From: a virus
Virus record (IMG/VR): IMGVR_UViG_3300028920_000026
Coordinates: 64,001-128,000 of that record
Direction: 5' to 3' (one strand)
Length of the DNA stretch: 64,000 bases
Shown: positions 31,404 through 46,454 of the stretch, in pieces
Layout of the letters: the number at the start of each line of letters is the position of its first letter
Position numbering within the stretch: position 1 is the stretch's first letter
Translations under genes and position numbers: made by a program
The notes under the pieces: generated by a model
The model's database searches: none
What the model was told of the DNA's origin: nothing
Seen by the model: the letters and a program-made list of their open reading frames with translations, nothing else

Positions 31404-31405
31404 CG

Positions 31406-31942: not shown

Positions 31943-32005
31943 CTCAGTTGGTAGAGCGCCTGCCTGAAGAGCAGGGCGTCGGGGGTTCGAACCCCTCCCG
32001 CGGCA
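31933..32005 (+). tRNA. tRNA-Phe (GAA)
   Basis: Acceptor GTCGCGG/CCGCGGC, D-arm GCTCAGTTGGTAGAGC, anticodon stem CCTGC/GCAGG loop CTGAAGA, T-arm GGGGGTTCGAACCCCTC. Confidence 0.7.
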
Positions 32006-32028
32006 CAGAATGGATACTTATCGTCAGA

Positions 32029-32562: not shown

Positions 32563-32631
32563 CGACGTGGCCGAGAGGCAAGGCACCTGGCTGCAACCCA
32601 GGCAACGCTGGTTCGAATCCGGCCGTCGTCT
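32561..32631 (+). tRNA. tRNA-Cys (GCA)
   Basis: Acceptor GACGACG/CGTCGTC, anticodon stem CCTGG/CCAGG loop CTGCAAC, T-arm GCTGGTTCGAATCCGGC. Confidence 0.65.
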
Positions 32632-32657
32632 CCGCGTAAATTAGTATTGAACTGAAT

Positions 32658-32692
32658 CCGGATGGGTTCGAGTAAGAAAGATGAAGTGGTGC
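32658..32692 (+). repeat. imperfect direct repeat copy A (GGATGGGTTCGAGTAAGAAAGATGAAGTGGTG)
   Basis: Matches 32951-32984 (GGATGGATCCGTGAAAGAAAAATGAAGTGGTG). The pair brackets a ~290-bp tRNA-containing segment. Confidence 0.6.
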
Positions 32693-32719
32693 CGAGTAAG
32701 GGCTATTGGTCCCGCGACG

Positions 32720-32808
32720 GGAAGCATAACCTATCCTTGGCGGAATTGGCATACGCGGACTGTCTAAAACAGTTTGCCTGAAAGGGCGTGCGGGTTCGAG
32801 TCTCGCAG
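32720..32808 (+). tRNA. tRNA-like element with long variable region (class II-like), boundaries unresolved
   Basis: Clear T-arm GCGGG-TTCGAGT-CTCGC, stem-loop ACTGT-CTAAAAC-ACAGT, GCC-TGAAA-GGC extra arm. No convincing 5' acceptor partner for AGGACTG. Confidence 0.3.
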
Positions 32809-32830
32809 GACTGAAGGTGAAAGGTACGTC

Positions 32831-32902
32831 GCTGGTGTGGTGATAATGGCAGCACGGTTCCCTGGTAAGGAACAAGCATGAGTTCGATTCTCGTCTCCAG
32901 CT
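32831..32902 (+). tRNA. tRNA-Thr (GGT)
   Basis: Acceptor GCTGGTG/CTCCAGC (one mismatch), anticodon stem GTTCC/GGAAC loop CTGGTAA, T-arm ATGAGTTCGATTCTCGT. Confidence 0.6.
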
Positions 32903-32950
32903 CGCGTAAGTTTTATCGAACTACATAATGATGTATGTTTAATGCAATTC

Positions 32951-32984
32951 GGATGGATCCGTGAAAGAAAAATGAAGTGGTGAA
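32951..32984 (+). repeat. imperfect direct repeat copy B
   Basis: See 32658-32692. Lies immediately upstream of the 32988 CDS start and contains its RBS-like AAGAAA. Confidence 0.6.
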
Positions 32985-32987
32985 AAC

Positions 32988-33749
32988 ATGATATTTAGAA
33001 ATATCATGACGCCTAAAGAGAAGGCAGAACACTTCCATGCGCTCAACAAGGACGGAAAGTGGAAGCCACGGGATCTCAAGAAGTTCGACGTCAAGAAACG
33101 TAACATCGAAGGACTCGGTGAGAGGTACTACGCGATCCCGGAGTCTCGAGAGGCGTACGAACGCCTGCAGTCGAGCAGAGGTATTGGTATCGCAAGCTGG
33201 GATGACATGGTCAAAAAGGTGAAGGGCCATGGGCTATCGCCGTTCCAGAAACAGCTCGTCCAGCAGGTAAACGGATACGCAAAGACGCACCCTGTCTATG
33301 ACAATGAGAAGGGATACGTTGAGGTTGGGTTCAGGTACCCTGCGATGATGGAACACTTCAAGAAGAAGTTCAAGTTTGTCAGAGGGTACGATATCGCTCC
33401 ACCTTCGATCGCAGTCGCTCAGCACCTTGGCTACGACGTCCACTTACACGACATCAGTGATGTAGGTGACCCAATCGACCTTAAGGACGTCAGGCTTCTC
33501 TGTGCACACGAGGTGTTTGAGCATACACCAAACCCCATTGACGCACTAACAAAGGTCTACAATGCTGCCGACGATGGAATGTTCATCCACCTCAGCGTTC
33601 CACTGCAGTCAGGTCGTCCGAAGATCCAGTTCGCTCACCTGTGGGAGTTCAAGAAGGGCGACATCGAAAAGATTCTTAAAAGAGTCGGTTGGAACGTTAT
33701 CAAGGTCAAGAAGGTGAATCACTCAGAGGTTGCCTTCGCAAAGAAGTGA
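32988..33749 (+). CDS. putative class I SAM-dependent methyltransferase
   Basis: YVEVGFRYP (motif I-like), DIAPPS, LLCAHEVFEHTPNP (motif resembling the FDxVxxxxVLEH block of Methyltransf_11/12). Confidence 0.5.
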   Translation: MIFRNIMTPKEKAEHFHALNKDGKWKPRDLKKFDVKKRNIEGLGERYYAIPESREAYERLQSSRGIGIASWDDMVKKVKGHGLSPFQKQLVQQVNGYAKTHPVYDNEKGYVEVGFRYPAMMEHFKKKFKFVRGYDIAPPSIAVAQHLGYDVHLHDISDVGDPIDLKDVRLLCAHEVFEHTPNPIDALTKVYNAADDGMFIHLSVPLQSGRPKIQFAHLWEFKKGDIEKILKRVGWNVIKVKKVNHSEVAFAKK

Positions 33750-34224
33750 GTGTAAAATGACAGATGATGATGACATCAAGGCTGCGCAGTTGAGGAACGC
33801 TCGCATCAAGGAATGGAGCGTCATTATCGGAATCGTTGCGTCAATCGTCCTCGGCGGGTTTTCCTATTTCAAGGAAGAGAAGGAAGACACGGCAAAGAAG
33901 GCGTACATTGAGGTCACAAAGCAGCTTGAAACAGCATCGCGAGAACGTGTGCAGCTCCAAAAAGACCTTGCATCGATCAGAGGATACCTTGCTGCGAAGT
34001 CTGAACGTCCTGTCAAGCTGCGCATCGATCCAGAGGACACAGAGAGCGCAGTGACGCAGCTCGCTGACGCAGCACGGCCAAGGGTAACGTACAGAAATGC
34101 GCCGTCTCCAGCCCCGACGATTGAAGTTGCCGCAAGCCCAGCGGAACCCGAAGAGATCCCAGAGCTCGAAGCGGCCGCAGAAGAATATTCGGCACCTCCC
34201 GTTGAGGAACTTGTTGCTGAATAA
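33730..34224 (+). CDS. membrane protein with Pro/Glu/Ala-rich C-terminal tail
   Basis: TM helix WSVIIGIVASIVLGGF then coiled region and PAPTIEVAASPAEPEEIPELE tail. Confidence 0.45.
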   Translation: MPSQRSECKMTDDDDIKAAQLRNARIKEWSVIIGIVASIVLGGFSYFKEEKEDTAKKAYIEVTKQLETASRERVQLQKDLASIRGYLAAKSERPVKLRIDPEDTESAVTQLADAARPRVTYRNAPSPAPTIEVAASPAEPEEIPELEAAAEEYSAPPVEELVAE

Positions 34225-34244
34225 GCGCAAGAGAAGTAACCTAC

Positions 34245-34316
34245 GACGCAGTAGCTCAGTTGGTAGAGCGCCGCCATGGTAGGCGGAGGTCGTCGGATCG
34301 AAGCCGACCTGCAGAA
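34245..34316 (+). tRNA. atypical tRNA-like gene (6-nt anticodon loop, A54 in T-loop)
   Basis: D-arm GCTCAGTTGGTAGAGC canonical. Stem CCGCC/GGCGG encloses ATGGTA (6 nt). T-arm GTCGG-ATCGAAG-CCGAC. Acceptor only ~4 bp. Confidence 0.3.
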
Positions 34317-34334
34317 GGTGAAACACTTGGGCGC

Positions 34335-34407
34335 GCTGGGTTAGTTTAACTGGTTAGAATCACTGCCTCGTAAGCAGTAGGTCCGGGTTCGACCCCCGGT
34401 CCCAGCT
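34335..34407 (+). tRNA. tRNA-Thr (CGT), CCA encoded
   Basis: Acceptor GCTGGGT/TCCCAGC, anticodon stem ACTGC/GCAGT loop CTCGTAA, T-arm CCGGGTTCGACCCCCGG, then TCCA. Confidence 0.65.
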
Positions 34408-34411
34408 CCAC

Positions 34412-34484
34412 GCCTCTATAGTTCAACGGCATAGAATAATCGGTTTGTACCCGATTGATTCCGGTTCGAATCCGGGTGGAGGCT
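34412..34484 (+). tRNA. tRNA-Thr (TGT)
   Basis: Acceptor GCCTCTA/TGGAGGC, anticodon stem ATCGG/CCGAT loop TTTGTAC, T-arm TCCGGTTCGAATCCGGG. Confidence 0.65.
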
Positions 34485-34512
34485 CAATTGAACTTGCATT
34501 ATACTTATTGAT

Positions 34513-35100
34513 GTGGCAAGTTCAAAACATCGAAATCAGTGGACGACCAAAGATTGGGATTCTATTGAGTTTAATGAACTTTCGTGGAGAAAAAAACGAG
34601 AACGTCTTTTTCGTGTAGCTAATTACGCATGTCCAATTTGCGGGTTTAACAAACGTAGACATGATGGTCGTCATGTTTTAGAAATTGATCATATCGATGG
34701 AGATCATTCAAACAATACAGAAGAAAATTTGCGTGTACTTTGTCCAAATTGTCATGCACTTACGCCAAATTTTCGAAATTGGGGAAGAACAAATAAGAAA
34801 ACATCAAATCGTCTTCGGCGAGAAAATAAGGGATTTGATGAAGTGCGTAAACGTAGAATTGTCGAAGAAAATGCATATGTTGAAATGTTCAAATTGACAG
34901 TTTTATCTGCACATGAAAGTGGAGAAATTAATTTTGCACGCTTTGGATGGGTACAACAATTAAGCGAAAAACTTGGAGATAGGTGCCCGCAAGCGGTCAG
35001 CAGAAGAGTGCAACGATTACTTCCACAATTTTATGTTGAACATTGCTTCATAAGAGGTAAAAAACGCCTACGACGCGAGAATAAAGATTTTAGCAAGTAA
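34513..35100 (+). CDS. HNH homing-type endonuclease
   Basis: CPICG ... HVLEIDHIDGDHSNNTEENLRVLCPNCHA HNH/zinc motif. Markedly AT-rich island embedded between tRNA genes. GTG start. Confidence 0.8.
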   Translation: MASSKHRNQWTTKDWDSIEFNELSWRKKRERLFRVANYACPICGFNKRRHDGRHVLEIDHIDGDHSNNTEENLRVLCPNCHALTPNFRNWGRTNKKTSNRLRRENKGFDEVRKRRIVEENAYVEMFKLTVLSAHESGEINFARFGWVQQLSEKLGDRCPQAVSRRVQRLLPQFYVEHCFIRGKKRLRRENKDFSK

Positions 35101-35101
35101 C

Positions 35102-35173
35102 CTTGAGGTGTTGTAAGTGGTAGCATTATTTGCGTCCAACTTGCGGTAATGGGTTCGAGTCCCATCCCAGGAG
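35102..35173 (+). tRNA. tRNA-like element (T-arm ATGGG-TTCGAGT-CCCAT), anticodon unresolved
   Basis: AGTGGTAG D-loop-like segment and canonical T-arm. No convincing acceptor or anticodon stem. Confidence 0.25.
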
Positions 35174-35965
35174 GTGAACGCAATACTTACATCTATGCTC
35201 ATGACAGTGGAAGGGCTTCGTAGCCTCGTTTACGAGGCGATCGCGGACGTTTGGACTCCCGAAAAGCTTCGCCAACGCCGTGGATTTAGTCCAGATGTTG
35301 CAAAGATGCTGATGACAGCGCATCCCAAGAAGATGGCGGAATTAGGTCTTTCGGAGGATGATATTGAGAACCTTCCGATGGTTGGTGAAGGTACGAAGGG
35401 CATCGCATTCGACCTTGGCGACAAGGTTCTAAAATTCACTGACGATGCTGAAGAGGCTGCTTCCTCGGCTGCATTGATGAACGTAAACGATCCAATCTTT
35501 GCAAAGTACTACAGTGTTTTTCGCTTCGGACAAACACCAAACTTTTTTGGTATCGTCCTTGAGAAGCTCGTCCCGTTGGAAAAAAGCGAGGCGGACGAGC
35601 TAGACAACCTGCTTCAGGAAGTGAAGTTCCACGCTTTTCTTTCGTTGGGAAACTACGATCCTGACGAGATGACAAAGATCTACATGGAAAAGGTGAAAGA
35701 CGGAGTTGGAAGGCTTGAACTCAGCGAACGAGAACGCCGCGAGATGATTCAAAGGTTTTTTGACAAGTGGGCAAAGGTGATGCGTGACTTCAGGATCTAC
35801 AGGATGATGAAGGCGCTTCAGAAGGCAGGCATTCAGTTCGGCGACTACCACGCCGGCAACATCATGAAGCGCCAATCGACAGGTGAACCCGTCATCATCG
35901 ACCTTGGGTACTCTTCGGGCGCAAAGGGTCAGATCGAAACAGTAAACGAATCTTATGGTGCCTGA
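35174..35965 (+). CDS. hypothetical protein
   Basis: 263-aa ORF. Stop TGA lies inside the acceptor stem of the following tRNA. Confidence 0.5.
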   Translation: MNAILTSMLMTVEGLRSLVYEAIADVWTPEKLRQRRGFSPDVAKMLMTAHPKKMAELGLSEDDIENLPMVGEGTKGIAFDLGDKVLKFTDDAEEAASSAALMNVNDPIFAKYYSVFRFGQTPNFFGIVLEKLVPLEKSEADELDNLLQEVKFHAFLSLGNYDPDEMTKIYMEKVKDGVGRLELSERERREMIQRFFDKWAKVMRDFRIYRMMKALQKAGIQFGDYHAGNIMKRQSTGEPVIIDLGYSSGAKGQIETVNESYGA

Positions 35966-36029
35966 GCACGATCGATTGAGTGGACTGGCTGTGACCCAGT
36001 TATAGCGGGTTCGATTCCCGTCGGGCACT
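35958..36029 (+). tRNA. tRNA-His (GTG)-like with 3-bp D-stem
   Basis: Acceptor GTGCCTG/CGGGCAC, anticodon stem ACTGG/CCAGT loop CTGTGAC, T-arm GCGGGTTCGATTCCCGT. G at -1 but U73. Confidence 0.5.
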
Positions 36030-36090
36030 CCGTGCAATCTTGTCAAAAAGTTGTTATACTTAGTGTATCTACTAACAGCCACTAGCTAGC

Positions 36091-36492
36091 TTGTTCGACC
36101 TTTCAACTAAGGAAACAACAATGTCATACGCAATTGGCCATGTAGTATTTGGTATCGCATATGATCATGACGATCACGGCGAGAAACTGAAGCAGCTTGC
36201 AGAGACAAACGAAGAATTAGCCGAGTACAATCTGGAAGATATTGAATCGCTTGGTTTCGAAACACCCTATAACGGCTCAGCAATGTGGCCTATTGGTTGG
36301 ATTGGTAAATGCTACGATACCATTAATGAATGCAGCGATTTTGAAGTTGACTCGTGGTATGAATCGTTAAACTCAAAGCGTGAACAATTTCAGAGGGACT
36401 TTCAGGAATGTTTCGATAGTCTTCCTGAGTTTATGAAAGAGATGCTTAAAGACGAGAAGCCCAAACTTTGGGTTGTGTGGGGAACATCGTGA
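36091..36492 (+). CDS. hypothetical acidic protein
   Basis: 133-aa ORF with RBS-like AAGGAAACAACAATG. Confidence 0.5.
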   Translation: MFDLSTKETTMSYAIGHVVFGIAYDHDDHGEKLKQLAETNEELAEYNLEDIESLGFETPYNGSAMWPIGWIGKCYDTINECSDFEVDSWYESLNSKREQFQRDFQECFDSLPEFMKEMLKDEKPKLWVVWGTS

Positions 36493-36530
36493 CTTTGCAA
36501 GGTATTCAATACTGAAAATAGATAAATGAT

Positions 36531-36601
36531 GTGTCAGAAAGCAAACGGTGAGCTAACTGGTTGTGGCCCAGTTGTACGTGGTTCGACTCCACGCTGACAC
36601 A
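36531..36601 (+). tRNA. tRNA-His (GTG)
   Basis: Acceptor GTGTCAG/CTGACAC perfect, anticodon stem ACTGG/CCAGT loop TTGTGGC, T-arm CGTGGTTCGACTCCACG. Confidence 0.7.
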
Positions 36602-36806
36602 CTGATCGTCGTGTCCCTTAAAAACAGGCAGCGTTGGGGGACTTCAGATTCGAATCCTGGCTAACCAAAGTATAGCTGCCGCGACGATCAACTGCTTGGC
36701 GCCTACGTGATCTAGGTAGGATCTCACGTCTGCCTCGCAGCGAGCCTTCTCGAATATCCGGTGAGACGGAAATTTTCGGATGGCTGGCGTGGGGAATAGA
36801 TCGTAA

Positions 36807-36880
36807 CCGTACGTAGCCCAACTGGCAGAGGCCGCTGCCTCAGAAGCAGTGTAGTGCAGGTTCGAATCCCGCCGTGCGGA
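36807..36880 (+). tRNA. tRNA with CAG anticodon (Leu) but class I (short variable arm) architecture
   Basis: Acceptor CCGTACG/CGTGCGG, anticodon stem GCTGC/GCAGT loop CTCAGAA, 5-nt variable region, T-arm GCAGGTTCGAATCCCGC (one mismatch), A73. Confidence 0.5.
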
Positions 36881-36913
36881 CAAATATAAGAGTGGAAAAC
36901 GTAAATGAATTTT

Positions 36914-36985
36914 GGCGACGAAACCGAATGGCTAGGTGTGCCTCTCATAAGGGTATTGTCGTGGGTTCGATTCCCACCGTCGCTA
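36914..36985 (+). tRNA. tRNA with CAT anticodon (Met or Ile2-lysidine type)
   Basis: Acceptor GGCGACG/CGTCGCT, anticodon loop CTCATAA between TGCCT/GGGTA (GU-rich stem), T-arm GTGGGTTCGATTCCCAC. Confidence 0.55.
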
Positions 36986-37095
36986 CGGGCGTTGAATGAA
37001 GGTGATCTGAGGTGTTATGTAGACGGTATCGGTATCGATCCTTGAAACGGCTCCGATCGCGTTCGAACCCAGAACGTCCACGAAGGAGTAGGAAA

Positions 37096-37765
37096 ATGAA
37101 GGAAGGTGTCATCATCGAAATCACTGCCGCAGAAGGTGGTGCAGACGCAAAGCTCCTGGTCGCCGACCAGCTTCGAGCGTATACAAACGTCGCTTTGCGG
37201 AGGCGTCTTTGACGCTACGCTCATAGACGAGCGACCAGGGTTCATCAGCGTAGCGTTTGAAGGAAAGGGCGTAAGGTCGCTCTTTGCTGACGAACCTGGT
37301 GGACATCGCTGGCAGCGTGTTCCTCCAACAGAAAAGCGTGGCCGTGTCCACACATCAACGGTTACAGTCTCCGTTGTTGATATGAACGATCGTTCTGTTG
37401 AACGACTCGATATGAACGACATCGAGGTCACGGTCGCTCGTGGAAGTGGACCAGGAGGGCAGCACAGAAACAAGACAGAATCGTGTGTGACAGTCGTTCA
37501 CAGGCCCACAGGAACAACCGCCAAGGCAGACCTAAGAAGCCAACACAGGTCCCGTGAAATGGCACTCAAGGTACTCGAAGGGCGCCTGAAAATTGCAAAA
37601 GAGCGCCAGATGATGGATAATATGGCGCGGGAAAGAAAAGCTCAGAAAGGCTCCGGGATGCGTGGCGACAAGGTCAGAACGTACAGAGTACGCGATGATG
37701 TTGTTACAGACCATCGCACCGGCAGGAAACTGAAGCTTTCGTCCTGGTTGAAGGGTGATTGGTAA
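37096..37765 (+). CDS. class I peptide chain release factor lacking domain 1, expressed through a prfB-type +1 programmed frameshift (join 37096..37209, 37211..37765)
   Basis: RBS AAGGAG then ATG 37096. Frame-1 segment IEITAAEGGADAKLLVADQLRAYTNVA matches the RF domain-2 start. It ends at CTT TGA C (37207-37213), preceded by GGAGG at the E. coli prfB SD spacing. The +1 frame continues DATLIDERPG ... GGHRWQRVPPTE (RF1-like PxT region) ... GSGPGGQHRNKTES (GGQ) ... TDHRTG. Protein homology is continuous across the shift. Confidence 0.75.
37199..37213 (+). promoter_or_regulatory. programmed +1 ribosomal frameshift site (GGAGG CGT CTT TGA C)
   Basis: Same slippery CUU U GA C heptad and internal Shine-Dalgarno spacing as the autoregulatory site of bacterial prfB. 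Confidence 0.7.
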
Positions 37766-37768
37766 AAG

Positions 37769-38179
37769 ATGAAGATCCTTGTGTGCGGTTCTCGGTTCTG
37801 GAAGGATATCGAGACGATTGCGGACGTGCTTTCGACATTCTCTCCTGACACGACTGTGGTACACGGTGCGTGTCGGGGCGCTGACTTCATAGCCGGTGAG
37901 GTCTCTAAACAGCTTGGTTTCACGGTGCGCCCGTACCCTGCAAACTGGAACAGATTCAAGGTGAAACACAAAAATCCAGCTGGCATCATCAGAAACCAGG
38001 AGATGCTCGACAAGGAACACAGGTACGACGATCCGATCATACTGTGCATCGCGTTCCATGACGACCTTGAACGATCTGCAGGAACAAAGGACATGGTCGA
38101 ACGAGCATCCCGAGCAGCAATCCCAGTTAGGAACGTGAGGTCGTCCGATGCAGAAACAAGACAAAGGGACAATCGATAG
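37769..38179 (+). CDS. SLOG-fold protein (DUF2493/YspA-like)
   Basis: ILVCGSR ... VVHGACRGADFIAGEV matches the DUF2493 Rossmann-like SLOG core (VGGxRxF ... GGAxGAD). 136 aa. Confidence 0.5.
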   Translation: MKILVCGSRFWKDIETIADVLSTFSPDTTVVHGACRGADFIAGEVSKQLGFTVRPYPANWNRFKVKHKNPAGIIRNQEMLDKEHRYDDPIILCIAFHDDLERSAGTKDMVERASRAAIPVRNVRSSDAETRQRDNR

Positions 38180-38600
38180 GTTCATAAACGATTTTGCGTT
38201 TCTTAGTAACTTCCACCCAAGCACGATCAGGTGGCGCGGGTTGAAGTGGAAGACAGTCGAACACGCCTACCAGGCTGCAAAGACGCTCGACGAGAAGCAA
38301 CAGCAGATGATCCACGAGTCAAAAACACCTGCTGAAGCAAAGAAGCTTGGTAGGGCTGTAACGATTCGTCCTGACTGGGATGATGTCAAGTTGTCAATCA
38401 TGGAGGAACTCATTCGTCTCAAATTTGAGAATCCACTACTTCGATATGCGTTACTTCAAACTGGTGAAAGGCCGCTTGTTGAAGGAAATCATTGGAATGA
38501 CACAACGTGGGGGATATGTAGAGGTAAGGGACAAAACTTACTTGGTAAGATTCTTATGAAAGTTCGTGATGAGTGTCGTGACGAAGAAATTGCTTCCTGA
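38148..38600 (+). CDS. NADAR-family protein (YbiA-like, DUF1768)
   Basis: FLSNFHP ... VEHAYQAAK ... W.DVKL..M......KF motifs typical of NADAR domain. Overlaps upstream gene by 32 nt. Confidence 0.65.
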   Translation: MQKQDKGTIDRFINDFAFLSNFHPSTIRWRGLKWKTVEHAYQAAKTLDEKQQQMIHESKTPAEAKKLGRAVTIRPDWDDVKLSIMEELIRLKFENPLLRYALLQTGERPLVEGNHWNDTTWGICRGKGQNLLGKILMKVRDECRDEEIAS

Positions 38601-38862
38601 TGGATACATCGGCTCTCCTTGACCGAGCCCATTGCGCAGTCTTTTTGTTAGACGAATGGGGACACGGATGCTAACAACAGCTTGGCTGATCCGGGGCAGC
38701 TTACGAAATGCGTGAAATCGTGGCTAAATTTGGAGAAGGCGCGCTTGCAATGTCCACCTCCGTACATCGTTCACCTCACTACGACCAATGTCGGCGCGCC
38801 GCTGTTGACCATCCGTAACACTCCCACAAATTGAAAAAGGTTTTGAAGAGCTGATTGCAAAC

Positions 38863-38946
38863 GCTGGCGTGCCGGAACTGGCATACGGGCTGCGCTGAGA
38901 ACGCAGTGGGAGAAATCCCATGTGGGTTCGAGTCCCACCGTCAGCA
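38863..38946 (+). tRNA. tRNA-Leu (GAG), class II
   Basis: Acceptor GCTGGCG/CGTCAGC, anticodon stem CTGCG/CGCAG loop CTGAGAA, variable arm TGGGA-GAAA-TCCCA, T-arm GTGGGTTCGAGTCCCAC, A73. Confidence 0.7.
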
Positions 38947-38991
38947 CCGTGCCTTGTACTACGTGCAAATGATGTGTACAATTGGTATACG

Positions 38992-39324
38992 ATGCAAGGA
39001 AACCAATCATCAGTTCCTGTCTGTTCGACTGCGTGCAAGTACACCCGAAGCGACGAGCTCCTCTTTGACGCTGAAGAGTTCGAAGTTGTCAAGTACATCC
39101 GAGATGAAGTCAGGAAGCGGTGCGGGGATATACAGCCCTGGTTGCTGCTCACGAGAATCGAGTCCTTTGACAAGACGAACTACGAGCTATCTGTAATGAA
39201 CAAGCTCGGATACCGGATGACGGGTGAACCCATCGAACGGATCCGCGCAGTTGTTGCAGAGTTGCTTGAAACGTTGACGCTGCCCGACAAGAAGGAACAG
39301 GATGGCGAAAAAGAAGTCAATTAG
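38992..39324 (+). CDS. hypothetical protein
   Basis: Internal ATG downstream of the tRNA. 110 aa. Confidence 0.4.
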   Translation: MQGNQSSVPVCSTACKYTRSDELLFDAEEFEVVKYIRDEVRKRCGDIQPWLLLTRIESFDKTNYELSVMNKLGYRMTGEPIERIRAVVAELLETLTLPDKKEQDGEKEVN

Positions 39325-39634
39325 CGGAACGTACTCGTACAAGATCCGCGATAGAATGACGGGCCTGTTTCGTGTTGGTGGCGCCGACAAGGGCTCATGG
39401 AGTTGGTCAAAGACCGGAAAGACATGGACGACATGGGCTGCGTTCAAGTCTCACCTCAGCCAGTACGCTCCCAATCCAATGCCCGCATGGTGGGAAATCA
39501 TCGTTGTTGCACCGATTCCGGGCACAAACATCAACGCCGAAGTAGCCCGCAACATGACTGAAATTGAAGTCGTAGAACTTGCGTTTGAGCACTACCTAGC
39601 ATCAAAGGCGAGTTCTGACGAAAGCTCCTCATAG
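39302..39634 (+). CDS. hypothetical protein
   Basis: 110-aa ORF, Trp-rich. Stop inside the next tRNA 5' end. Confidence 0.45.
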   Translation: MAKKKSISGTYSYKIRDRMTGLFRVGGADKGSWSWSKTGKTWTTWAAFKSHLSQYAPNPMPAWWEIIVVAPIPGTNINAEVARNMTEIEVVELAFEHYLASKASSDESSS

Positions 39635-39696
39635 TTCAACGGACAGAGCGCAAGCCTCCTAAGCTTGAAATCCTGGTTCGAATCCAGGCGGGGAGA
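39625..39696 (+). tRNA. tRNA-Arg (CCT)
   Basis: Acceptor CTCCTCA/CGGGGAG, D-arm GTTCAACGGACAGAGC, anticodon stem CAAGC/GCTTG loop CTCCTAA, T-arm CCTGGTTCGAATCCAGG. Confidence 0.65.
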
Positions 39697-39698
39697 CA

Positions 39699-39905
39699 AT
39701 GATGGCAACAGAACTCTGGATGGAAAACGACGGTCTACACGTCAAGGACGGCGTTGAGTACGTTTATGAAGATGCGTATGTCAAATCAATAACGTTCCAT
39801 ATGGAGTGTAACGACGATAGCGTCAAAATCGAAAAGTTCAATCTGAAGACATCGCCATTGAACGAGATTCCCGTCATCCCAAGGTTGTCAAACACGTCCC
39901 AGTAG
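39699..39905 (+). CDS. hypothetical small protein
   Basis: 68-aa ORF between two tRNA-Arg genes. Confidence 0.35.
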   Translation: MMATELWMENDGLHVKDGVEYVYEDAYVKSITFHMECNDDSVKIEKFNLKTSPLNEIPVIPRLSNTSQ

Positions 39906-39969
39906 CTCAATTGGATATAGCGCCGGTCTTCTAAACCGGATGTTGAGGGTTCGAATCCTTCCTGGGATG
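39896..39969 (+). tRNA. tRNA-Arg (TCT)
   Basis: Acceptor GTCCCAG/CTGGGAT, anticodon stem CCGGT/ACCGG loop CTTCTAA, T-arm GAGGGTTCGAATCCTTC. Confidence 0.65.
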
Positions 39970-39975
39970 CTGGGG

Positions 39976-40275
39976 ATGGCGGGGAAACGAAAGGCGTTTT
40001 GCATTGAGTGGTCGAACCTTTCTGATCGCGAGGTCAACGGGTGTTCGTTACACGCAAGCATGTCTGATGCAGACAACTATGAAAAGCGAGCGATAGCTCG
40101 CAACGATGGTCGATTTCCCTCTGCGAAGTTCAAGGTAAGGGTCAGCAATGACATCTGGACTGGCATCACGGCCGCAAAGGAGGCGAGATGCCCTGGAATC
40201 AGATACTTTAGATCTGATTACATCGCATTGAAACGGGCACAGCAGGATGAAGAAGGTCAACGTAACGGTCGTTAG
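39976..40275 (+). CDS. hypothetical protein
   Basis: Internal Met of the 39940 ORF downstream of the tRNA. Start uncertain. Confidence 0.3.
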   Translation: MAGKRKAFCIEWSNLSDREVNGCSLHASMSDADNYEKRAIARNDGRFPSAKFKVRVSNDIWTGITAAKEARCPGIRYFRSDYIALKRAQQDEEGQRNGR

Positions 40276-40396
40276 TGACACAAAAAATCCCAAGAAGTTT
40301 CTTGAGTCTGAGCAGCAACCCCCAAAGACACGAAGAGAGCGCCTTGCAAGAGAGGCGTTGACAACGAGCGACGTGATCCCGTTCAAAAAGAAGTGA

Positions 40397-40469
40397 GTGC
40401 GACGATACAGCTGGTGAAGTAACCTGCTCGACAAGCAGGTCCCGCAGGGTTCGATCCCCTGGTCGCATA
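40397..40469 (+). tRNA. tRNA-Val (GAC)
   Basis: Acceptor GTGCGAC/GTCGCAT, anticodon stem CCTGC/GCAGG loop TCGACAA, T-arm CAGGGTTCGATCCCCTG. Confidence 0.65.
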
Positions 40470-40474
40470 CCAAG

Positions 40475-40547
40475 CGCTCGCGAGCTTGCTGGTGAAGGCG
40501 CCTCTTTCACGAAGAGGAATTGCTGGGTTCGATCCCCAGGTGAGCGA
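40475..40547 (+). tRNA. tRNA-Val (CAC)
   Basis: Acceptor CGCTCGC/GTGAGCG, anticodon stem CCTCT/AGAGG loop TTCACGA, T-arm CTGGGTTCGATCCCCAG. Confidence 0.65.
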
Positions 40548-40580
40548 CGAAGTTGACCAATCGAGTGCTTTGTAGTACAA

Positions 40581-40654
40581 TGGGACTTAGCTCAGTAGGT
40601 AGAGCGCCTCCCTTACAAGGAGGAGGTCGTTCGGTTCGAAACCGACAGTCCCAA
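40581..40654 (+). tRNA. tRNA-Val (TAC)
   Basis: Acceptor TGGGACT/AGTCCCA perfect, D-arm GCTCAGTAGGTAGAGC, anticodon stem CCTCC/GGAGG loop CTTACAA, T-loop TTCGAAA. Confidence 0.7.
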
Positions 40655-40656
40655 CG

Positions 40657-40744
40657 GAAGCGTGGCAGAGTGGTTTATTGCACTAGTCTTGAAAACTAGC
40701 GAGGTCCGAAAGGGCCCCCGTGGGTTCGAATCCCACCGCTTCCT
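40657..40744 (+). tRNA. tRNA-Ser (TGA), class II, CCA encoded
   Basis: Acceptor GGAAGCG/CGCTTCC, anticodon stem CTAGT/ACTAG loop CTTGAAA, long variable arm, T-arm GTGGGTTCGAATCCCAC, then TCCA. Confidence 0.7.
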
Positions 40745-40746
40745 CC

Positions 40747-40977
40747 ATGCAATATGAAGCAAAGATGACAGTAACGTTGTCATTTACGCGCACCGGAGAT
40801 CATTCTGATGCGGCTACATTAATGTCTGTTGTTGGTTGCCTCAAGGGTTTACTTCACGGTGAACTAAATGTGATCAGCGGGCAGATTCAGGACGCAGAGC
40901 TTCATCCGTTTAAGTTCGACAGTATCGAAAACATCACAGTCGAGAGCATCACGTACACAAACACCAAGGAGGCATGA
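40747..40977 (+). CDS. hypothetical small protein
   Basis: ATG overlapping the tRNA CCA (CCATG). 76 aa. Confidence 0.35.
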   Translation: MQYEAKMTVTLSFTRTGDHSDAATLMSVVGCLKGLLHGELNVISGQIQDAELHPFKFDSIENITVESITYTNTKEA

Positions 40978-41171
40978 TGTCAATCAAGAGGATTGGAGAC
41001 CTAGTTGAAAAGAAACACATCGGTATAAAGTGGGACTCTCCACGCCCGTGTCACCATCCAGAACACAACGTTCCGATGCACATCAGCCTTCCCAACGGGA
41101 GGTATGAACATACGTGTCCTGCGTGTGGAAAAGTCACGCAATTTGCAATCAACAATCCAGTTCTTATGTAA
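40974..41171 (+). CDS. small zinc-ribbon protein
   Basis: CHHPEH ... CPACG Cys/His pairs. ATGA overlap. Confidence 0.4.
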   Translation: MMSIKRIGDLVEKKHIGIKWDSPRPCHHPEHNVPMHISLPNGRYEHTCPACGKVTQFAINNPVLM

Positions 41172-41199
41172 GTTCAACCTCTATGATTTGCTAATGCCC

Positions 41200-41287
41200 G
41201 GAAGCACAACCCAACAGTCGGCGATGGGACCCGATTGGAAGTCGGGCGAGTGTAAAAGCCTTGCAGGTTCGACCCCTGCTGCTTCCG
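41200..41287 (+). tRNA. tRNA-Ser (GGA), class II
   Basis: Acceptor GGAAGCA/TGCTTCC, anticodon stem CCCGA/TCGGG loop TTGGAAG, variable arm CGAGTGTAAAAGCCTTG, T-arm GCAGGTTCGACCCCTGC. Confidence 0.65.
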
Positions 41288-41676
41288 TGATGACAACTGA
41301 AGCGATTGTCGTAAATCCGTATAGAGAACACATCAAAAATATTAATGATATTAGCTTCCTCAACCTGAAACTGTTCGTGAACAGCTTTTTGAGCTTCTTG
41401 AAACTGCAAGAAGTACGTTAAGGGTACGTGGTATCATTGATGAAGAAGAAAAATTTTCTTTAGTTGCAGAAGAAAATTTGCATAGAATCGATTATAAAAC
41501 AAAACGTGCCATCAATATCCTTGATGTCGAACGCGATCGCGAACGACAGTTGCTGTTATCGCCAAGCGTTTGCGTCATAAGATTTCAATGACGCAAAATA
41601 TGGTGTTGCGACAATATTTACATGATGAATATGAGCTTCTAACTCAGATTCTAGATGAGTATCACGGGAGGACGCC

Positions 41677-41922
41677 ATGAACGATAAGGTTTATATCGTC
41701 ATCCATCTTGCATGTCTACGAAACGGTGACTTCGGTGTACACGGAGCGTACCTCGACAAGGAACGAGCTCAAACGCGGATGAAAAAAGTCGTAGATGAAC
41801 AAAGGAGGCAGCCACTGACTGGTCAGCACGAGCAGAGCTGGATCTACTGCATCAAGATGATTTCTGGTACTCAACAATTGGTGAGACGATATTCATCGAA
41901 GAGACAACGCTTGATGCGGTAG
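41677..41922 (+). CDS. hypothetical protein
   Basis: 81-aa ORF following an AT-rich island with several sub-60-aa ORFs. Confidence 0.4.
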   Translation: MNDKVYIVIHLACLRNGDFGVHGAYLDKERAQTRMKKVVDEQRRQPLTGQHEQSWIYCIKMISGTQQLVRRYSSKRQRLMR

Positions 41923-42060
41923 ATAAATCATAGGCACCCGATCAAGGTCATCTTGAATCCAATTCTACGAATGTTTGGGTTCAGTATCGTAAGCGTTTTT
42001 GACGATGATGTATTCTTGCGATTTGAGATGAGGCCCTACCCTCAGTACTGTAGGAAACTT

Positions 42061-42148
42061 GGAAGGACTACCCGACGGTTGGCGACGGGACCTCACTGCT
42101 AACGAGGCGAGTGTAAAAGCCTTGTGGGTTCGATCCCCACTCCTTCCG
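42061..42148 (+). tRNA. tRNA-Ser (GCT), class II
   Basis: Acceptor GGAAGGA/TCCTTCC, anticodon loop CTGCTAA, same GAGTGTAAAAGCCTTG variable arm as Ser(GGA), T-arm GTGGGTTCGATCCCCAC. Confidence 0.65.
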
Positions 42149-42149
42149 C

Positions 42150-42248
42150 GGAAAGACTACCGAATCAGGAGATCGGAGCCCATAGTAACTCTATGGGTGA
42201 TGACGACGATCAAATACCGTTATGCGGGTTCGACTTCCGCTCTTTCCG
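42150..42248 (+). tRNA. atypical ~99-nt tRNA-like gene with perfect acceptor and T-arm but extra internal hairpins
   Basis: Acceptor GGAAAGA/TCTTTCC perfect, T-arm GCGGG-TTCGACT-TCCGC. Internal 7-bp hairpin CCCATAG-TAACT-CTATGGG and a 25-nt region before the T-arm. Anticodon not assignable. Confidence 0.35.
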
Positions 42249-42250
42249 CT

Positions 42251-42487
42251 ATGCACTTCATAAGTGAACAGATCAATGAGCTCATTCAGGAATCTACGAG
42301 CCCATCGCACGCGCTTGGAATGATCTCTGATCTTCTTCATTTTGCAAAGTCGACTCGACAGATCGTTGAGGGGGCGATTAGAGGATCCGTTGACGACGAT
42401 GAAGGAACAATGACGTGCGAGGTGTTCTTTCGAATTTCATCTGCAACAGGATTTGTTAGAGTTTCGATAGAAGAGCAACATTGGTAG
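42251..42487 (+). CDS. hypothetical small protein
   Basis: Internal Met of the 42059 ORF located right after the tRNA-like gene. 78 aa. Confidence 0.3.
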   Translation: MHFISEQINELIQESTSPSHALGMISDLLHFAKSTRQIVEGAIRGSVDDDEGTMTCEVFFRISSATGFVRVSIEEQHW

Positions 42488-42570
42488 GTCCACCCGACGG
42501 CCGGCGACGGGCACTGTCTCGAACACAGCGGAGCGTAACAGCTTTGGGGGTTCGATCCCCTCACCTACCG
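42483..42570 (+). tRNA. tRNA-Ser (CGA), class II
   Basis: Acceptor GGTAGGT/ACCTACC, anticodon loop CTCGAAC, variable arm GAGCGTAACAGCTTTG, T-arm GGGGGTTCGATCCCCTC. Confidence 0.65.
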
Positions 42571-42714
42571 CAGCCAAGGTACGTAACGCAACAAGGATAC
42601 CAAGCAAAAGAAAGATTGGGACGTACCTCTCCACAGTAACCGATGAATCAGCTTGGGGATTTTGAAGGTGAAAGGGAACGGCAAACTCTACTTAGATCAT
42701 CCTTGCTTAGATAT

Positions 42715-42786
42715 GCACTCGTAATTCAGTGGTAGAATGTCACCTTGCCAAGGTGGACGTCGCGGGTTCGAATCCCGCCGAGTGCA
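42715..42786 (+). tRNA. tRNA-Gly (GCC)
   Basis: Acceptor GCACTCG/CGAGTGC, D-arm ATTCAGTGGTAGAAT, anticodon stem TCACC/GGTGG loop TTGCCAA, T-arm GCGGGTTCGAATCCCGC. Confidence 0.7.
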
Positions 42787-42790
42787 CTGC

Positions 42791-42864
42791 GCGCCATTGG
42801 TGTTCAACGGTTAGCATGTGAGCCTTCCAAGCTTGAGGTGAGGGTTCGAATCCCTCATGGTGCT
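42791..42864 (+). tRNA. tRNA-Gly (TCC)
   Basis: Acceptor GCGCCAT/ATGGTGC, anticodon stem TGAGC/GCTTG loop CTTCCAA, T-arm GAGGGTTCGAATCCCTC. Confidence 0.7.
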
Positions 42865-42889
42865 CTGAAGAGAATGTAGGTTGTCGCAA

Positions 42890-42974
42890 GGTCCCTTGGC
42901 GGAATTAGGCAGACGCAGTAGGCTCAAACCCTGCGGCCCTTCGGGGCGTCCCTGTTCGAATCCGGGAGGGACTA
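42890..42974 (+). tRNA. tRNA-Leu (CAA), class II
   Basis: Acceptor GGTCCCT/AGGGACT, anticodon stem GTAGG/CCTGC loop CTCAAAC, variable arm GGCCC-TTCG-GGGC, T-arm CCCTGTTCGAATCCGGG, A73. Confidence 0.65.
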
Positions 42975-43037
42975 CGATGAAAGGAAAAAGCACGTTGGCT
43001 CGCGATCCCAGGCTCTAGCTTTCAAGGAGCTAGAAGA

Positions 43038-43253
43038 ATGGAAATTTACATCGAGATTCCGCCTCCTGTCATACTATGTGGTCTTAGACCCTGGCGTAGG
43101 CACCATCTTTGCCTTGGTCAGGACAAGCGTGTCGCTCGTCGCACATGGCGACGAAACCTCAACATGATCATGAAGAGGATGACACATGATCCCGAGACGT
43201 ACTACGACGAAGGTTTCAACGTGCATACACTGACATCATGGGACGTAGACTAA
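43038..43253 (+). CDS. hypothetical small protein
   Basis: 71-aa ORF with RBS-like GGAGCTAGAAGAATG. Confidence 0.3.
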   Translation: MEIYIEIPPPVILCGLRPWRRHHLCLGQDKRVARRTWRRNLNMIMKRMTHDPETYYDEGFNVHTLTSWDVD

Positions 43254-43526
43254 TGCTCTCCTTGCTCATATCGGCGCCGGTGATCCCGGCAGATAGGCAA
43301 GGAGAGCATGAATCACAAATGCAAGCGCCCCAAGAACCGACGAGCCGGATGCCTGATGTGTAGTAAACTACACAAGGCGAACGGATGCAAGCGTTCGAAG
43401 CACAACCTGCTGCCTCGCAACAGGAAAAGCTTCATCAATAAACGTGAACAGCTCATCGAGTGTACATCTTGATCCAGTGTATTATGTCTGTAACAGGACG
43501 GTTACATACTGATCCAAGGAGTCAAG

Positions 43527-43739
43527 TTGCTACGTATCTTCGATGTTCTGTGTAAATCACATTCGAGAAACGATGCAGCCGTCGTACTGACGAGCGCTCG
43601 AATCAGGCGTGAGTTGCCTCACGTACGAAACGTTGCTGCCGACCACCGGCGGAACGTCCTGACAGTGGGATGTTCGTTAGACGATGCCGAACTCATAGCG
43701 CTGATGCGCGAAAACGTTGAGTTAACGACTGCTCGTTGA
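43527..43739 (+). CDS. hypothetical small protein
   Basis: 70-aa ORF (TTG start). Confidence 0.25.
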   Translation: MLRIFDVLCKSHSRNDAAVVLTSARIRRELPHVRNVAADHRRNVLTVGCSLDDAELIALMRENVELTTAR

Positions 43740-44035
43740 TACAGAAATGTAACAAAACCGGAATAGGTATGTTACAGAAAGGAGGTGACTCCAAATGATG
43801 GAAGTTGTCATTTGCGCAAGCATGATCCCGAGCCTTGGCGTTCTCATAGCACAGATCTATGAGGCATTCAAGAGATAGAGGCCGTGGCACTCCTGGTCGG
43901 GGTCGGGCGTCTTATACACGTCTGCGTTAAAGGGTTCAATTCCCTTGCGGTCTACAACGACTCGGCCGAGTCGTTGTCGATAGTGAAAAATCATCAAACG
44001 CAAGAAATCCGATGATTTTGCGTACAGCTCCGCGG

Positions 44036-44554
44036 TCATGACATGACAACTCTGATGATTGTAAACTTGACGTCATGTCTACGCGATGAGAGCGCCTTCA
44101 TACATCTGATCTGTCTGTCAGAGTCCTCAAAGTAGCGAACGCTTGAGATTTCCATCTCATCGATGAGCGTCTCGAGGAACGCAGCCTTTCCTCCAGGACC
44201 GTCTGCTTCGGGTCCGATTGCATAGACCTTGACGTCAGGCATGTTGTAGAGGTCAAGGAACTCCTTTGGACCCGTGGTGGAGCTGCGAGCGGTAAGGATG
44301 ATGAGGCTATTGGCACCATCATTGTTGTAGCGTTCCTTTGCGATCCTCAACACTGTCCAGTTCGTTTCGTGCGCATCGTCTAGGCGATTGAACTGTGTAA
44401 CGTCATAGTCGTACTTTTCATTGTCCGGTAAGTGTGTTCGCCACTCGGACGAGTTCATCCAAACCTCTGAACCTGTCGTCTTATCGACAGCCTTGACCAT
44501 CGAGTGTGTCCTGCAGAGGGTATCGTCGAAGTCAAATACATCGAGGTGAGTCAT
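44036..44554 (-). CDS. HAD-superfamily phosphatase (Pnkp phosphatase-domain-like)
   Basis: Start MTHLDVFDFDDTLC (DxDxT motif I), LIILTAR (motif II), YFEDSD (motif IV). Divergent from the adjacent RNA ligase gene. Confidence 0.65.
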   Translation of the reverse strand: MTHLDVFDFDDTLCRTHSMVKAVDKTTGSEVWMNSSEWRTHLPDNEKYDYDVTQFNRLDDAHETNWTVLRIAKERYNNDGANSLIILTARSSTTGPKEFLDLYNMPDVKVYAIGPEADGPGGKAAFLETLIDEMEISSVRYFEDSDRQIRCMKALSSRRHDVKFTIIRVVMS

Positions 44555-44760
44555 GATAACATCAATCTTAATATATGATGTCGCAGAGTTCAAATGCTGT
44601 GTTTATGGCTGGGCATTTTGCATCGACGAAAGCGCAAAGTCGTATGCCACAACCTCAAAGACACGACCTCGACCGAACCCAGCCGGAACAGAGATTCTTT
44701 TGGTTCCAATGAACACTGTCACAAATACACCTGATGTAACTAGGGGATAGTATCACCATC

Positions 44761-46002
44761 ATGGCTAGCCCACATGTAATCGAGTACCTGCGTACGCACA
44801 CGCTCTACGAACTGTATGAAAATCATGGCGTAAAGTTTCGTGTTGATGCGTTACGTACAAAGATCAGCCTGAACTATGATCAGCTGAAGCTTAAGGCAGG
44901 AGACATCATTGCAGAGTGTTGCCGCGGGCTCATCATTAGGCCAGACTTTGTTTGTAGGTTCGGCAGTGGAAGACTTCCTGCCGACGACGCAGCACTTGAA
45001 CACATGAAGCTCGGACAGTGCCACGTTGTTTCGCGTCCGATGGACAAGTTCTATAACTACGGTGAACATGGCACAGCAGATGTTGATCAGTCGACGATGA
45101 ATGTGCTCGAAAAGCTCGACGATACGATGTGTCACCTATACTTCGACAGGTTCTTAGGCCAGTGGTGCGTGGCAACGCGGTCGATTCCAGATGCTGATCT
45201 ACCCATCAGGCAGGGAGACATCGTCCTCAGCAACAAGACGTTCTCTGACGTCTTTTGGGAAGCGTTTGATGCAACCGTCAAGGCCCGATGTTCATCACGA
45301 GCTGACGCGTTGGATGACTTGATGGTGGGTTATACGTACGTCTTTGAGCTGACAACGCCACAGAATCGAATTGTTGTCAAGTACGACGAATCAAAGGTTA
45401 CGCTCATCGCAGTCCGGCAGACGCGAACAGGCCAGGAACTAAACATCTTCATCGATCATAGGGTGCGTCAGCTTCCATTCCCTCGACCTCGTACATGGCA
45501 CCTCAACGATCCTATTGCCATAGCGGCGCGTGCGGATTCGTTTGATCCGACGAAACTCGAAGGATTTGTTACAATTGATAACAAATTTAGACGTGTTAAG
45601 ATCAAGAACTCGCTGTGGGCCTCCTCATCAAAGATGAAGGACAGCGCAACAAACTCAAAGCGCAACGCCGTGCTCGCAGCGTTCAAAGGTACACTTGACG
45701 ATATCATGCCACTTGTGGACGATGAATCACGTGAATACCTAATGAAGGTCAAGGAAGGCATACGTGAGTACGTTGACGCAACACAGATCATGTACAACCG
45801 GTTCGCAGAACAGTGTGAGCCTGGAGACTACAAGACATTCGCGTCTCTCGTAAACGCTGCCCAACCTCCGATACACGCTGCATACTTCATGACGTTCAGG
45901 GGTCGGTGTAAGAACGTGCGTGAGTTTTTTGACCAGGCGACGGCGAACGGACGTTTGACTCGCAAGACCCTCGACGTGATTATTCAACACCTTGGGCTGT
46001 AG
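44761..46002 (+). CDS. RNA ligase 1 (RnlA)-like protein with variant motif I (KLDD)
   Basis: VLEKLDDTMCHLY at the motif I position (KxDG with G to D). EGFVTIDNKFRRVKIKN resembles nucleotidyltransferase motifs IV/V. 413 aa. Confidence 0.55.
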   Translation: MASPHVIEYLRTHTLYELYENHGVKFRVDALRTKISLNYDQLKLKAGDIIAECCRGLIIRPDFVCRFGSGRLPADDAALEHMKLGQCHVVSRPMDKFYNYGEHGTADVDQSTMNVLEKLDDTMCHLYFDRFLGQWCVATRSIPDADLPIRQGDIVLSNKTFSDVFWEAFDATVKARCSSRADALDDLMVGYTYVFELTTPQNRIVVKYDESKVTLIAVRQTRTGQELNIFIDHRVRQLPFPRPRTWHLNDPIAIAARADSFDPTKLEGFVTIDNKFRRVKIKNSLWASSSKMKDSATNSKRNAVLAAFKGTLDDIMPLVDDESREYLMKVKEGIREYVDATQIMYNRFAEQCEPGDYKTFASLVNAAQPPIHAAYFMTFRGRCKNVREFFDQATANGRLTRKTLDVIIQHLGL

Positions 46003-46004
46003 CC

Positions 46005-46454
46005 ATGGTCTACCAGAACAGGTTTATTCTAGCGGCCCTTCGAGCGGTACGAGAGACTGGTTTTGACCCTCGTCTAAAGGCACATGTGGGTGCTGTCATC
46101 ACACGTGGTGGCTCGATCATAAGCGTTGCTACGAATACGTACGGGACCGATCCCTATACGCTGGCTCGTACAGAGAACGGATACGTAGACTCTGTGCATG
46201 CCGAGGTGAACGCGATCATGCGAGTCCGCCACAAGGTTGATCTTGATGGGACCAAAATGTGGGTTGTACGCCTGACAAAACCAAATCCAGATCTTTTAAC
46301 TGACAGTATGATTGCTCTTGCAGAACCTTGCAACGTATGCAAGAACGTGATCATGCGACATGGTATCAGGCGTGTATATTACACGATTGACGAACAGACA
46401 ACAGCGTGTTGGCGAGTTCCACGAATTGACGTACCGCGCAAACATCGACCTTAA
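46005..46454 (+). CDS. CMP/dCMP-type zinc deaminase (ComEB/Cd-like; TadA-like function not excluded)
   Basis: HAEVNAI ... PCNVCKNVIMRHGIRRVYY zinc-binding H(A)E / PCxxC signature with the GIxxVxY tail typical of dCMP deaminases. Confidence 0.65.
   Translation: MVYQNRFILAALRAVRETGFDPRLKAHVGAVITRGGSIISVATNTYGTDPYTLARTENGYVDSVHAEVNAIMRVRHKVDLDGTKMWVVRLTKPNPDLLTDSMIALAEPCNVCKNVIMRHGIRRVYYTIDEQTTACWRVPRIDVPRKHRP

Follow-up and report, generated by a model that had tools for sequence, protein, structure and literature searches.

A divergent HAD phosphatase and Rnl1-type RNA ligase pair at the end of a phage tRNA array, with a private motif I substitution in the ligase and an adjoining deaminase

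Results

Three adjoining genes at the border of a tRNA array

We analysed a 64,000-nucleotide stretch of viral DNA (the window; positions 64,001 to 128,000 of IMG/VR record IMGVR_UViG_3300028920_000026), part of a 331-kb metagenomic contig (ENA ERZ27252253 k141_1101516), and in it a trio of genes for a stand-alone HAD phosphatase of the DxDxT type (44036..44554, minus strand, 172 aa), an Rnl1-type ATP-dependent RNA ligase (44761..46002, plus strand, 413 aa) and a CDA-fold zinc deaminase (46005..46454, plus strand, 149 aa). The trio lies exactly at the border between an array of 37 tRNA genes with interspersed small open reading frames (ORFs; 15214..43955, plus strand) and large tail-fibre-like genes with Laminin_G_3 domains, which start at 46451 on the minus strand. 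Some 80 nt separate the end of the last tRNA of the array, tRNA-Ile(UAU) (43879-43955, plus strand), from the stop codon of the HAD gene. A megablast search of the region against 50,697 GenBank phage records gave zero nucleotide-level matches; a close relative in culture is lacking. The three ORFs picked out by the initial annotation are present with the motifs quoted for them, and because each of these motifs falls on a column that does not vary among the homologs of its protein, they are not chance occurrences.

The maximal ORF of the phosphatase (44036-44593) has 185 aa and begins with TTG. We moved the start to the ATG at 44554 because the orthologue at the related locus L003 begins MHLDVFDFDDT; the public gene call (154 aa) loses the catalytic DxDxT. 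The protein carries the four catalytic motifs of the HAD superfamily on a Rossmann-like fold, namely D8-F-D10-D-T12 (I), T88-A-R90 (II), K123 (III) and E143-D144-S145 (IV), which include the DFDDT, LTAR and EDSD first noticed. Neither the query nor any of 14 family members matches PF25109 (HAD_PNKP) at E-values up to 1, and DUF2608 is matched by 10 of the 14. When the family is aligned by hhalign with the Pnkp proteins of related phages, the four motifs align, with T-A-R on S-G-R (34% probability, E = 4e-4), and fold searches rank polynucleotide 3'-phosphatases at the top by a narrow margin that does not discriminate subfamilies. No match was found in PHROGs or in a PDB sequence search, and tblastn against the same 50,697 GenBank phage records returned no relative. 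The 'Swiss-army-knife' HAD family is absent from the Pfam matches, the presence of models for it in the library being unconfirmed.

Phosphatase and ligase are separated by a divergent intergenic region of 206 bp (44555..44760), which presumably holds their promoters; promoter and terminator scans, sigma-70-like matches included, stayed at chance level. A 65-aa ORF called in this interval is not conserved. Two small ORFs of the public annotation, 43857-44039 (minus strand, over the tRNA-Ile gene) and 44553-44750 (plus strand, in the divergent intergenic region), are probably spurious.

An Rnl1-type ligase with a private substitution in motif I

Judged from profile matches, its alignment to T4 Rnl1 and the family alignment, the ligase, initially called RnlA-like, is a genuine Rnl1-type enzyme. 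It matches PF09511 (1.2e-8; 35.5 bits, above the gathering score of 28.3), phrog_562 of PHROGs (3.9e-34) and TIGR02308 (1.5e-20), yet its 73.6 bits with the last model fall short of the 242 required for an equivalog. Among proteins of solved structure the best relative is T4 Rnl1, on which the query residues K118-L-D-D121 fall on K99-E-D-G102, bearing out the first reading of KLDD at motif I, and in which the other motifs pair as FEL/FEF (III), EGFV/EGYV (IV) and KIK (V). The Rnl1-specific residues of the N-subdomain are kept (R55, K96 and F97; T4 R54, K75 and F76), as are the catalytic residues of motifs Ia (R140, Lys in T4), III (E196), IV (E267-G268) and V (K280/K282), and all of the kept motif residues occupy family-invariant columns. 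Motif I is the sole catalytic motif not intact: Lys118 and Asp120 are present, and Asp121 stands at the position of the glycine. At 65 of the 71 positions conserved in the family the protein has the conserved residue, as is typical for members.

Asp121 is encoded by GAT (45121..45123, plus strand), one transition away from GGT, and corresponds to T4 Gly102, whose replacement by alanine is said to leave T4 Rnl1 inactive. A database search yielded 556 homologs of the ligase, many on contigs of 150-480 kb; in the alignment of the best 120, Gly occupies this position in 119 of 119 other sequences. KxDG is likewise present in all 80 relatives on IMG/VR viral contigs (80 loci, 69 unique ligases). 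Because every relative reads KxDG and because the protein is otherwise so well conserved, we regard KLDD as a private, recent substitution, and not as the variant form of motif I that it was first taken for. The ENA (MEGAHIT) contig and a 143-kb Logan contig (run SRR8554435) are identical at all 15,403 bases compared.

What the substitution may do is suggested by related enzymes. The G168A mutant of DraRnl has <1% activity, with defects in steps 1 and 3 (PMC1807946), and the main-chain carbonyl of the equivalent glycine in fungal Trl1, Gly151, touches the catalytic metal complex (PMC6379707). Since a private change has struck a glycine that a related ligase cannot do without, loss of function is a better account of G121D than new chemistry, and adenylyltransferase activity is most likely abolished or severely reduced.

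A second RNA ligase, of the PF09414 (Rnl2) type, lies about 32 kb upstream of the Rnl1-type gene (12369..12912, plus strand) and is broken at two points, by a TAG in frame at 12504 and by a frameshift near 12597. Its bridged translation matches profile positions 10-170 at 3.6e-15, and the intact C-terminal ORF alone at 6.5e-9; the motif I region reads ETLVHNSN, the lysine apparently having been lost. Recoding of the TAG was considered and rejected: there is no suppressor tRNA among the tRNAs of the window, and the standard code reads the long structural genes without interruption. On these grounds the second ligase is, by its sequence, a pseudogene. With two RNA ligases of its genome damaged, the phage seems to be under relaxed selection for RNA ligation.

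The window also encodes an ATP-dependent DNA ligase (22762-24162, plus strand; PF01068 and PF14743) whose motif I is an intact KLDG, whereas the RNA ligase of the same genome has KLDD.

The HAD–ligase pair is conserved and excludes Pnkp

The HAD gene stands directly upstream of the ligase, on the opposite strand, at L003 (61% ligase identity), L004-6 (41%) and L007-9. Among the IMG/VR ligase loci it adjoins the ligase at 16 of 80 (13 of the 69 unique ligases), all of them in the closest ligase subclade. It is always on the opposite strand, at -623 to +78 nt from the ligase when maximal ORFs are measured; 12 of the 13 unique loci lie within about 80 nt, the spacing in relatives ranges from overlap to about 290 bp, and the divergent pairing persists down to about 35% ligase identity. 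In a distant ligase subclade the HAD is absent, and at 26 loci Pnkp is encoded about 2.4 kb upstream by a full-length gene or by two of them (PF25109 at 4e-38, plus an AAA_33 kinase), often together with an Rnl2-type ligase and a metallophosphatase. HAD and Pnkp never occur together: Pnkp is found at 0 of 16 HAD-positive loci and at 26 of the 64 others (Fisher p = 9e-4, uncorrected for phylogeny). This complementary pattern is the best argument for the HAD as the end-healing partner of the ligase.

Several related loci have features of their own. The rare-anticodon tRNA-Ile(UAU) is the final tRNA ahead of the HAD–ligase module also at L178 (3262-3339), a 42%-identical relative, and a further tRNA-Ile(UAU) occurs at L183 (808-899), a third, unrelated deaminase locus. 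Upstream of the Rnl1 ligase, the HAD-less jumbo-phage loci L114-L152 often have a pair of paralogous Pnkp genes, both full-length (for example at L127, 1230-2162 and 2756-3694), accompanied by an Rnl2-type ligase gene, a gene for a calcineurin-like phosphoesterase and an ORF of 171 aa without a Pfam match. At 21 of 80 viral loci of the HAD family (within L027-L087; for example L048, 5884-6717 and 6721-7167), the HAD gene has directly behind it a gene for a 148-aa APS-kinase-like protein, amid glycosyltransferase-like, GHMP-kinase and IscU/IscA-like genes, which suggests another role for the HAD family there. We considered whether the APS-kinase-like neighbour might be the kinase of a split Pnkp and rejected the idea, as its best PDB matches are true APS kinases. 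Downstream of HAD homologs at L052 (9171-11360) and 10 further loci lies a gene for a 729-aa protein with an N-terminal EKVDGQN, which resembles KxDG, and a cytidylyltransferase-like C-terminal part; this protein gave no match to ligase profiles or in the PDB and was discarded as a ligase candidate.

A deaminase family in tRNA-centred company

The deaminase gene starts 3 nt after the ligase stop codon. Its zinc-site motifs, H65-A-E67 and P108-C-x-x-C112, are the HAE and PCxxC initially reported, with H65, E67, C109 and C112 invariant in the family, and the protein matches PF00383 (4e-12) and dCMP-deaminase families of PHROGs. An exhaustive search returned 750 representatives at E-values up to 1e-3, all of them small proteins. 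Cellular genomes gave 9 weak matches in 185,579 species with a narrowed alignment, all on contigs of metagenome-assembled genomes. This is thus a small, previously unstudied family nearly confined to phages.

Sequence comparisons lean towards pyrimidine deamination. Against the PDB, the family profile ranks dCMP deaminases first (3.5e-12 to 3e-11) and TadA close behind (1.7e-10). The NCBIfam dCTP and dCMP deaminase models are matched by 26 and 23 of 41 members, far under their cut-offs; the TadA model NF008113 is matched by 3 of the 41, with a best E-value of 2e-4, also far under its cut-off; and ComEB, with a cut-off of 219, gives 20.5 bits. The classification of Iyer et al. 2011 (PMC3239186) uses a C-terminal hairpin to set CDA-like enzymes apart from the helix-4 division, which comprises dCMP deaminases and TadA. 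Our predicted model has a beta4-beta5 hairpin and no helix 4, and with 12 residues after the last strand it leaves the C-terminal helices of TadA absent. Fold searches did not discriminate subfamilies. Pfam matches to MafB19-deam were dropped as a pointer to a toxin-type clade, that profile reportedly differing from the published MafB19 clade (bioRxiv 10.1101/2023.06.29.547047).

We compared the genomic context of 24 strong family loci in IMG/VR with that of 56 weaker, canonical-type loci. An Rnl1-type ligase lies directly upstream, with overlapping stop and start codons, at 3 of the 24 strong loci (L173, L178 and L191, which represent three ligase subclades); with the window and L003, the ligase-then-deaminase arrangement is seen in 5 genomes in all. 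MnmA (PF03054, 5e-63) is encoded 0.3-2.2 kb upstream of the deaminase at 7 of the 24. tRNA genes are present at 7 of 24 strong loci versus 2 of 56 weaker ones (Fisher p = 0.0025). Thymidylate synthase (31 of 56) and dUTPase (16 of 56) are neighbours at the weaker loci; the strong family loci are without them. Such neighbours point towards tRNA. Weak relatives occur in cultured phages, with 83 Streptomyces phage records matching the deaminase; among them is gp231 of Streptomyces phage Karimac (L260, record 109152-110345; 33.6% identity over 83% of the query by tblastn), annotated as a deoxycytidylate deaminase and located inside a tRNA-dense region, adjoining the phosphoesterase gp232.

The proposal that the enzyme is TadA-like, or else a dCMP deaminase of the T4 type, is not sustained: neither class agrees with its predicted topology and genomic context. 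It shares with the T4-type and cyanophage dCMP deaminases (PDB 1vq2, 4p9c) the HAE and PCxxC zinc site and gives its best profile-to-PDB matches with them (3.5e-12 to 1e-11), and differs in the predicted hairpin without helix 4, in its lack of thymidylate synthase and dUTPase neighbours and in its low NCBIfam scores; from TadA it differs in the scarcity of model matches, the missing C-terminal helices and the near absence of the family from cellular genomes. Nor does the tRNA repertoire offer the two A34 anticodons initially counted as potential TadA substrates: A34 occurs in one tRNA of the window only, tRNA-Arg(ACG) (16046-16119). The deaminase is an occasional add-on whose translation is probably coupled to that of the ligase. 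That the family acts on tRNA, on a base in or near the anticodon loop and not on free nucleotides, is a possibility that we put forward with considerable doubt. If it does, its coupling to Rnl1, MnmA and tRNA genes would reflect a phage toolkit for remodelling or restoring anticodon loops under attack by host anticodon nucleases, and tRNA editing would make it a new class of phage tRNA-modifying enzyme.

Discussion

A proposed healing and sealing unit that may be decaying

Phage RNA repair is a known answer to bacterial tRNA-cutting defences; in T4, the repair of tRNA-Lys by Pnkp and Rnl1 is a countermeasure to the anticodon nuclease PrrC. We interpret the HAD–ligase pair as a conserved jumbo-phage unit for end healing and sealing, in which the ligase of the present phage is probably disabled and repair is decaying, with the deaminase as an add-on, and we hold this interpretation with about as much confidence as doubt. 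In such a unit, the stand-alone HAD, transcribed divergently from the Rnl1-type ligase at the border of tRNA array and tail-fibre-like genes, would take the 3'-phosphate off a tRNA cut in the anticodon loop, and a competent ligase would self-adenylylate on Lys118 and then seal the 3'-OH and 5'-phosphate ends. In distant relatives, a full-length Pnkp with both kinase and phosphatase would replace the stand-alone HAD. The G121D change and the pseudogenised second ligase together suggest that ligase-based RNA repair is being lost in this phage.

The surroundings are in keeping with RNA repair: the array of 37 tRNAs ends here, and release-factor-like and NADAR genes are close by. Within the array, at 37106-38600 (plus strand), lie adjacent genes for a release-factor-like protein (GGQ; PCRF and RF-1 domains; 219 aa), a YAcAr SLOG-domain protein (136 aa) and a NADAR protein (150 aa); this trio, or PTH2, is also found near the ligase in the relatives L007-9 and L004-6.

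The likeness to the T4 Pnkp/Rnl1 system pointed out in the initial annotation holds in part. Both have an Rnl1-type ligase with the N-subdomain and motifs Ia, III, IV and V, an adjoining DxDxT phosphatase, here in a conserved pair, and a tRNA-rich phage as their setting. Unlike its T4 counterpart, the phosphatase stands alone, with no kinase domain and no match to PF25109, the profile of Pnkp phosphatases; Asp replaces the glycine in motif I of the ligase; and no kinase was found in the window or at the HAD-positive loci. Logic and setting are shared with the RNA repair described for jumbo phages, which combine tRNAs, Rnl1 and Rnl2 ligases and HAD phosphatases that are either fused to a kinase (PKN-HAD) or of the stand-alone 'Swiss-army-knife' kind (Iyer et al. 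2021, PMC7824862). Our locus agrees in that the stand-alone HAD and the kinase-fused Pnkp exclude each other beside orthologous ligases, and in the NADAR, YAcAr and release-factor-like genes close by. It differs in that its HAD matches DUF2608 and generic HAD profiles and has no GenBank phage relative, and in the attached deaminase, a word that occurs 0 times in that paper. The bacterial Pnkp1-Rnl-Hen1 complex (PDB 4xrp) is different: its Pnkp1 is a 311-residue kinase-phosphatase with 16% identity, and no Hen1 methyltransferase is present here.

Several observations weigh against the proposed repair unit. There is no P-loop/Walker-A kinase ORF in the window or within 6 kb of the HAD-positive ligase loci, and with no 5'-kinase in sight, healing and sealing of 5'-OH ends would be incomplete. 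When the survey starts from the HAD family and not from the ligase, a ligase is present at only 6 of 80 loci (74 are without one); an APS-kinase-like gene directly follows the HAD at 21 of the 80, and PTH2, DNA ligase or GHMP kinase genes are close by at others. As to the decay of the unit, the two assemblies that agree on Asp121 probably derive from the same reads. Elsewhere in the ligase only 6 deviations at conserved columns are found, which is within the family range; with no excess divergence, inactivation is unproven, and Asp is possibly tolerated.

Alternative explanations

Tolerance of Asp121 would be needed if the trio were instead a fully working unit of tRNA repair and editing, in which the KLDD enzyme self-adenylylates, the HAD heals 3' ends, a kinase is encoded elsewhere and the deaminase aids tRNA. 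The intact remainder of the ligase's catalytic residues, a divergence no greater than that of its relatives and the conservation of the HAD–ligase pair all accord with this, and the window covers only 64 kb of a 331-kb genome, leaving room for a kinase. We consider it unlikely all the same: only Gly occurs at the motif I position in about 200 relatives, even a change to Ala at the equivalent glycine kills DraRnl, and a kinase was seen at none of the HAD-positive loci.

It is rather improbable that no common function links the three neighbouring genes, with the HAD acting on small molecules such as nucleotide 3'-phosphates or sugar phosphates, the deaminase serving pyrimidine nucleotide metabolism and the gene order inherited at the border of a module. 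Such an account would explain why most genes of the HAD family lie apart from ligases and beside APS-kinase-like, GHMP-kinase and glycosyltransferase-like genes, and it is in keeping with the sulfotransferase encoded in the window, with the closeness of the deaminase sequence to dCMP/dCTP deaminases and with the annotation of its cultured-phage relatives as dCMP deaminases. It leaves unexplained the tight divergent pairing of HAD and ligase down to about 35% ligase identity, exclusive with Pnkp, as well as the overlapping stop and start codons of ligase and deaminase in three ligase subclades; and thymidylate synthase and dUTPase, the neighbours of canonical phage dCMP deaminases, are missing around members of the deaminase family.

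A very improbable explanation is that the ligase has been kept for a non-catalytic task, for which loss of the glycine is tolerated. T4 RNA ligase 1 is gp63, the tail-fibre attachment factor (Snopek 1977, in the reference list of PMC3400036); the name of the PHROGs family accords with this, and large tail-fibre-like genes with Laminin_G_3 domains invariably adjoin the ligase in the present lineage. Only for T4 is there direct evidence of a fibre function, however; ligase and fibre-like genes converge and are not co-transcribed, and the full catalytic set in all relatives indicates that catalysis is selected in the lineage. Finally, the single transition from GGT to GAT in a metagenome contig could be an artefact of sequencing or of the consensus, or else a minority allele, in a phage that truly has KLDG, which we regard as most improbable given two assemblies in full agreement, albeit probably from shared reads.

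Implications

The theme of RNA repair in jumbo phages is already known (PMC7824862), and the unusual part of the present unit is its stand-alone HAD partner, a family seen from metagenomes only that takes the genomic place of Pnkp beside one Rnl1 clade. Given this position, one may ask what becomes of 5' ends, or if the nucleases that are targeted leave 5'-phosphates. A natural Gly-to-Asp change in motif I, combined with a dead second ligase, looks like a snapshot of a counter-defence being lost. The most interesting lead is the tRNA-linked deaminase family, whose neighbours are tRNA-centred and not nucleotide-metabolic and whose weak relatives in cultured Streptomyces phages can be tested.

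Other genes of the window

By eye, two ORFs at 315-1379 (minus strand) and 35174-35965 (plus strand) resemble the protein-kinase fold, with a glycine-rich loop and an HxxN-like motif; neither has a Pfam match. A DUF2201 metallopeptidase/VWA-like protein is encoded at 24468-26093 (plus strand), and a phage-encoded sigma-70 family factor at 20505-21356 (plus strand; region 2 at 3.5e-20). Genes for a sulfotransferase (PF17784), a UDP-glucose/GDP-mannose dehydrogenase, a GFO/IDH/MocA oxidoreductase and a formyltransferase are clustered at 2586-7835 (plus strand), and this sugar- and sulfur-transfer cluster may serve the modification of DNA or of surface glycans.

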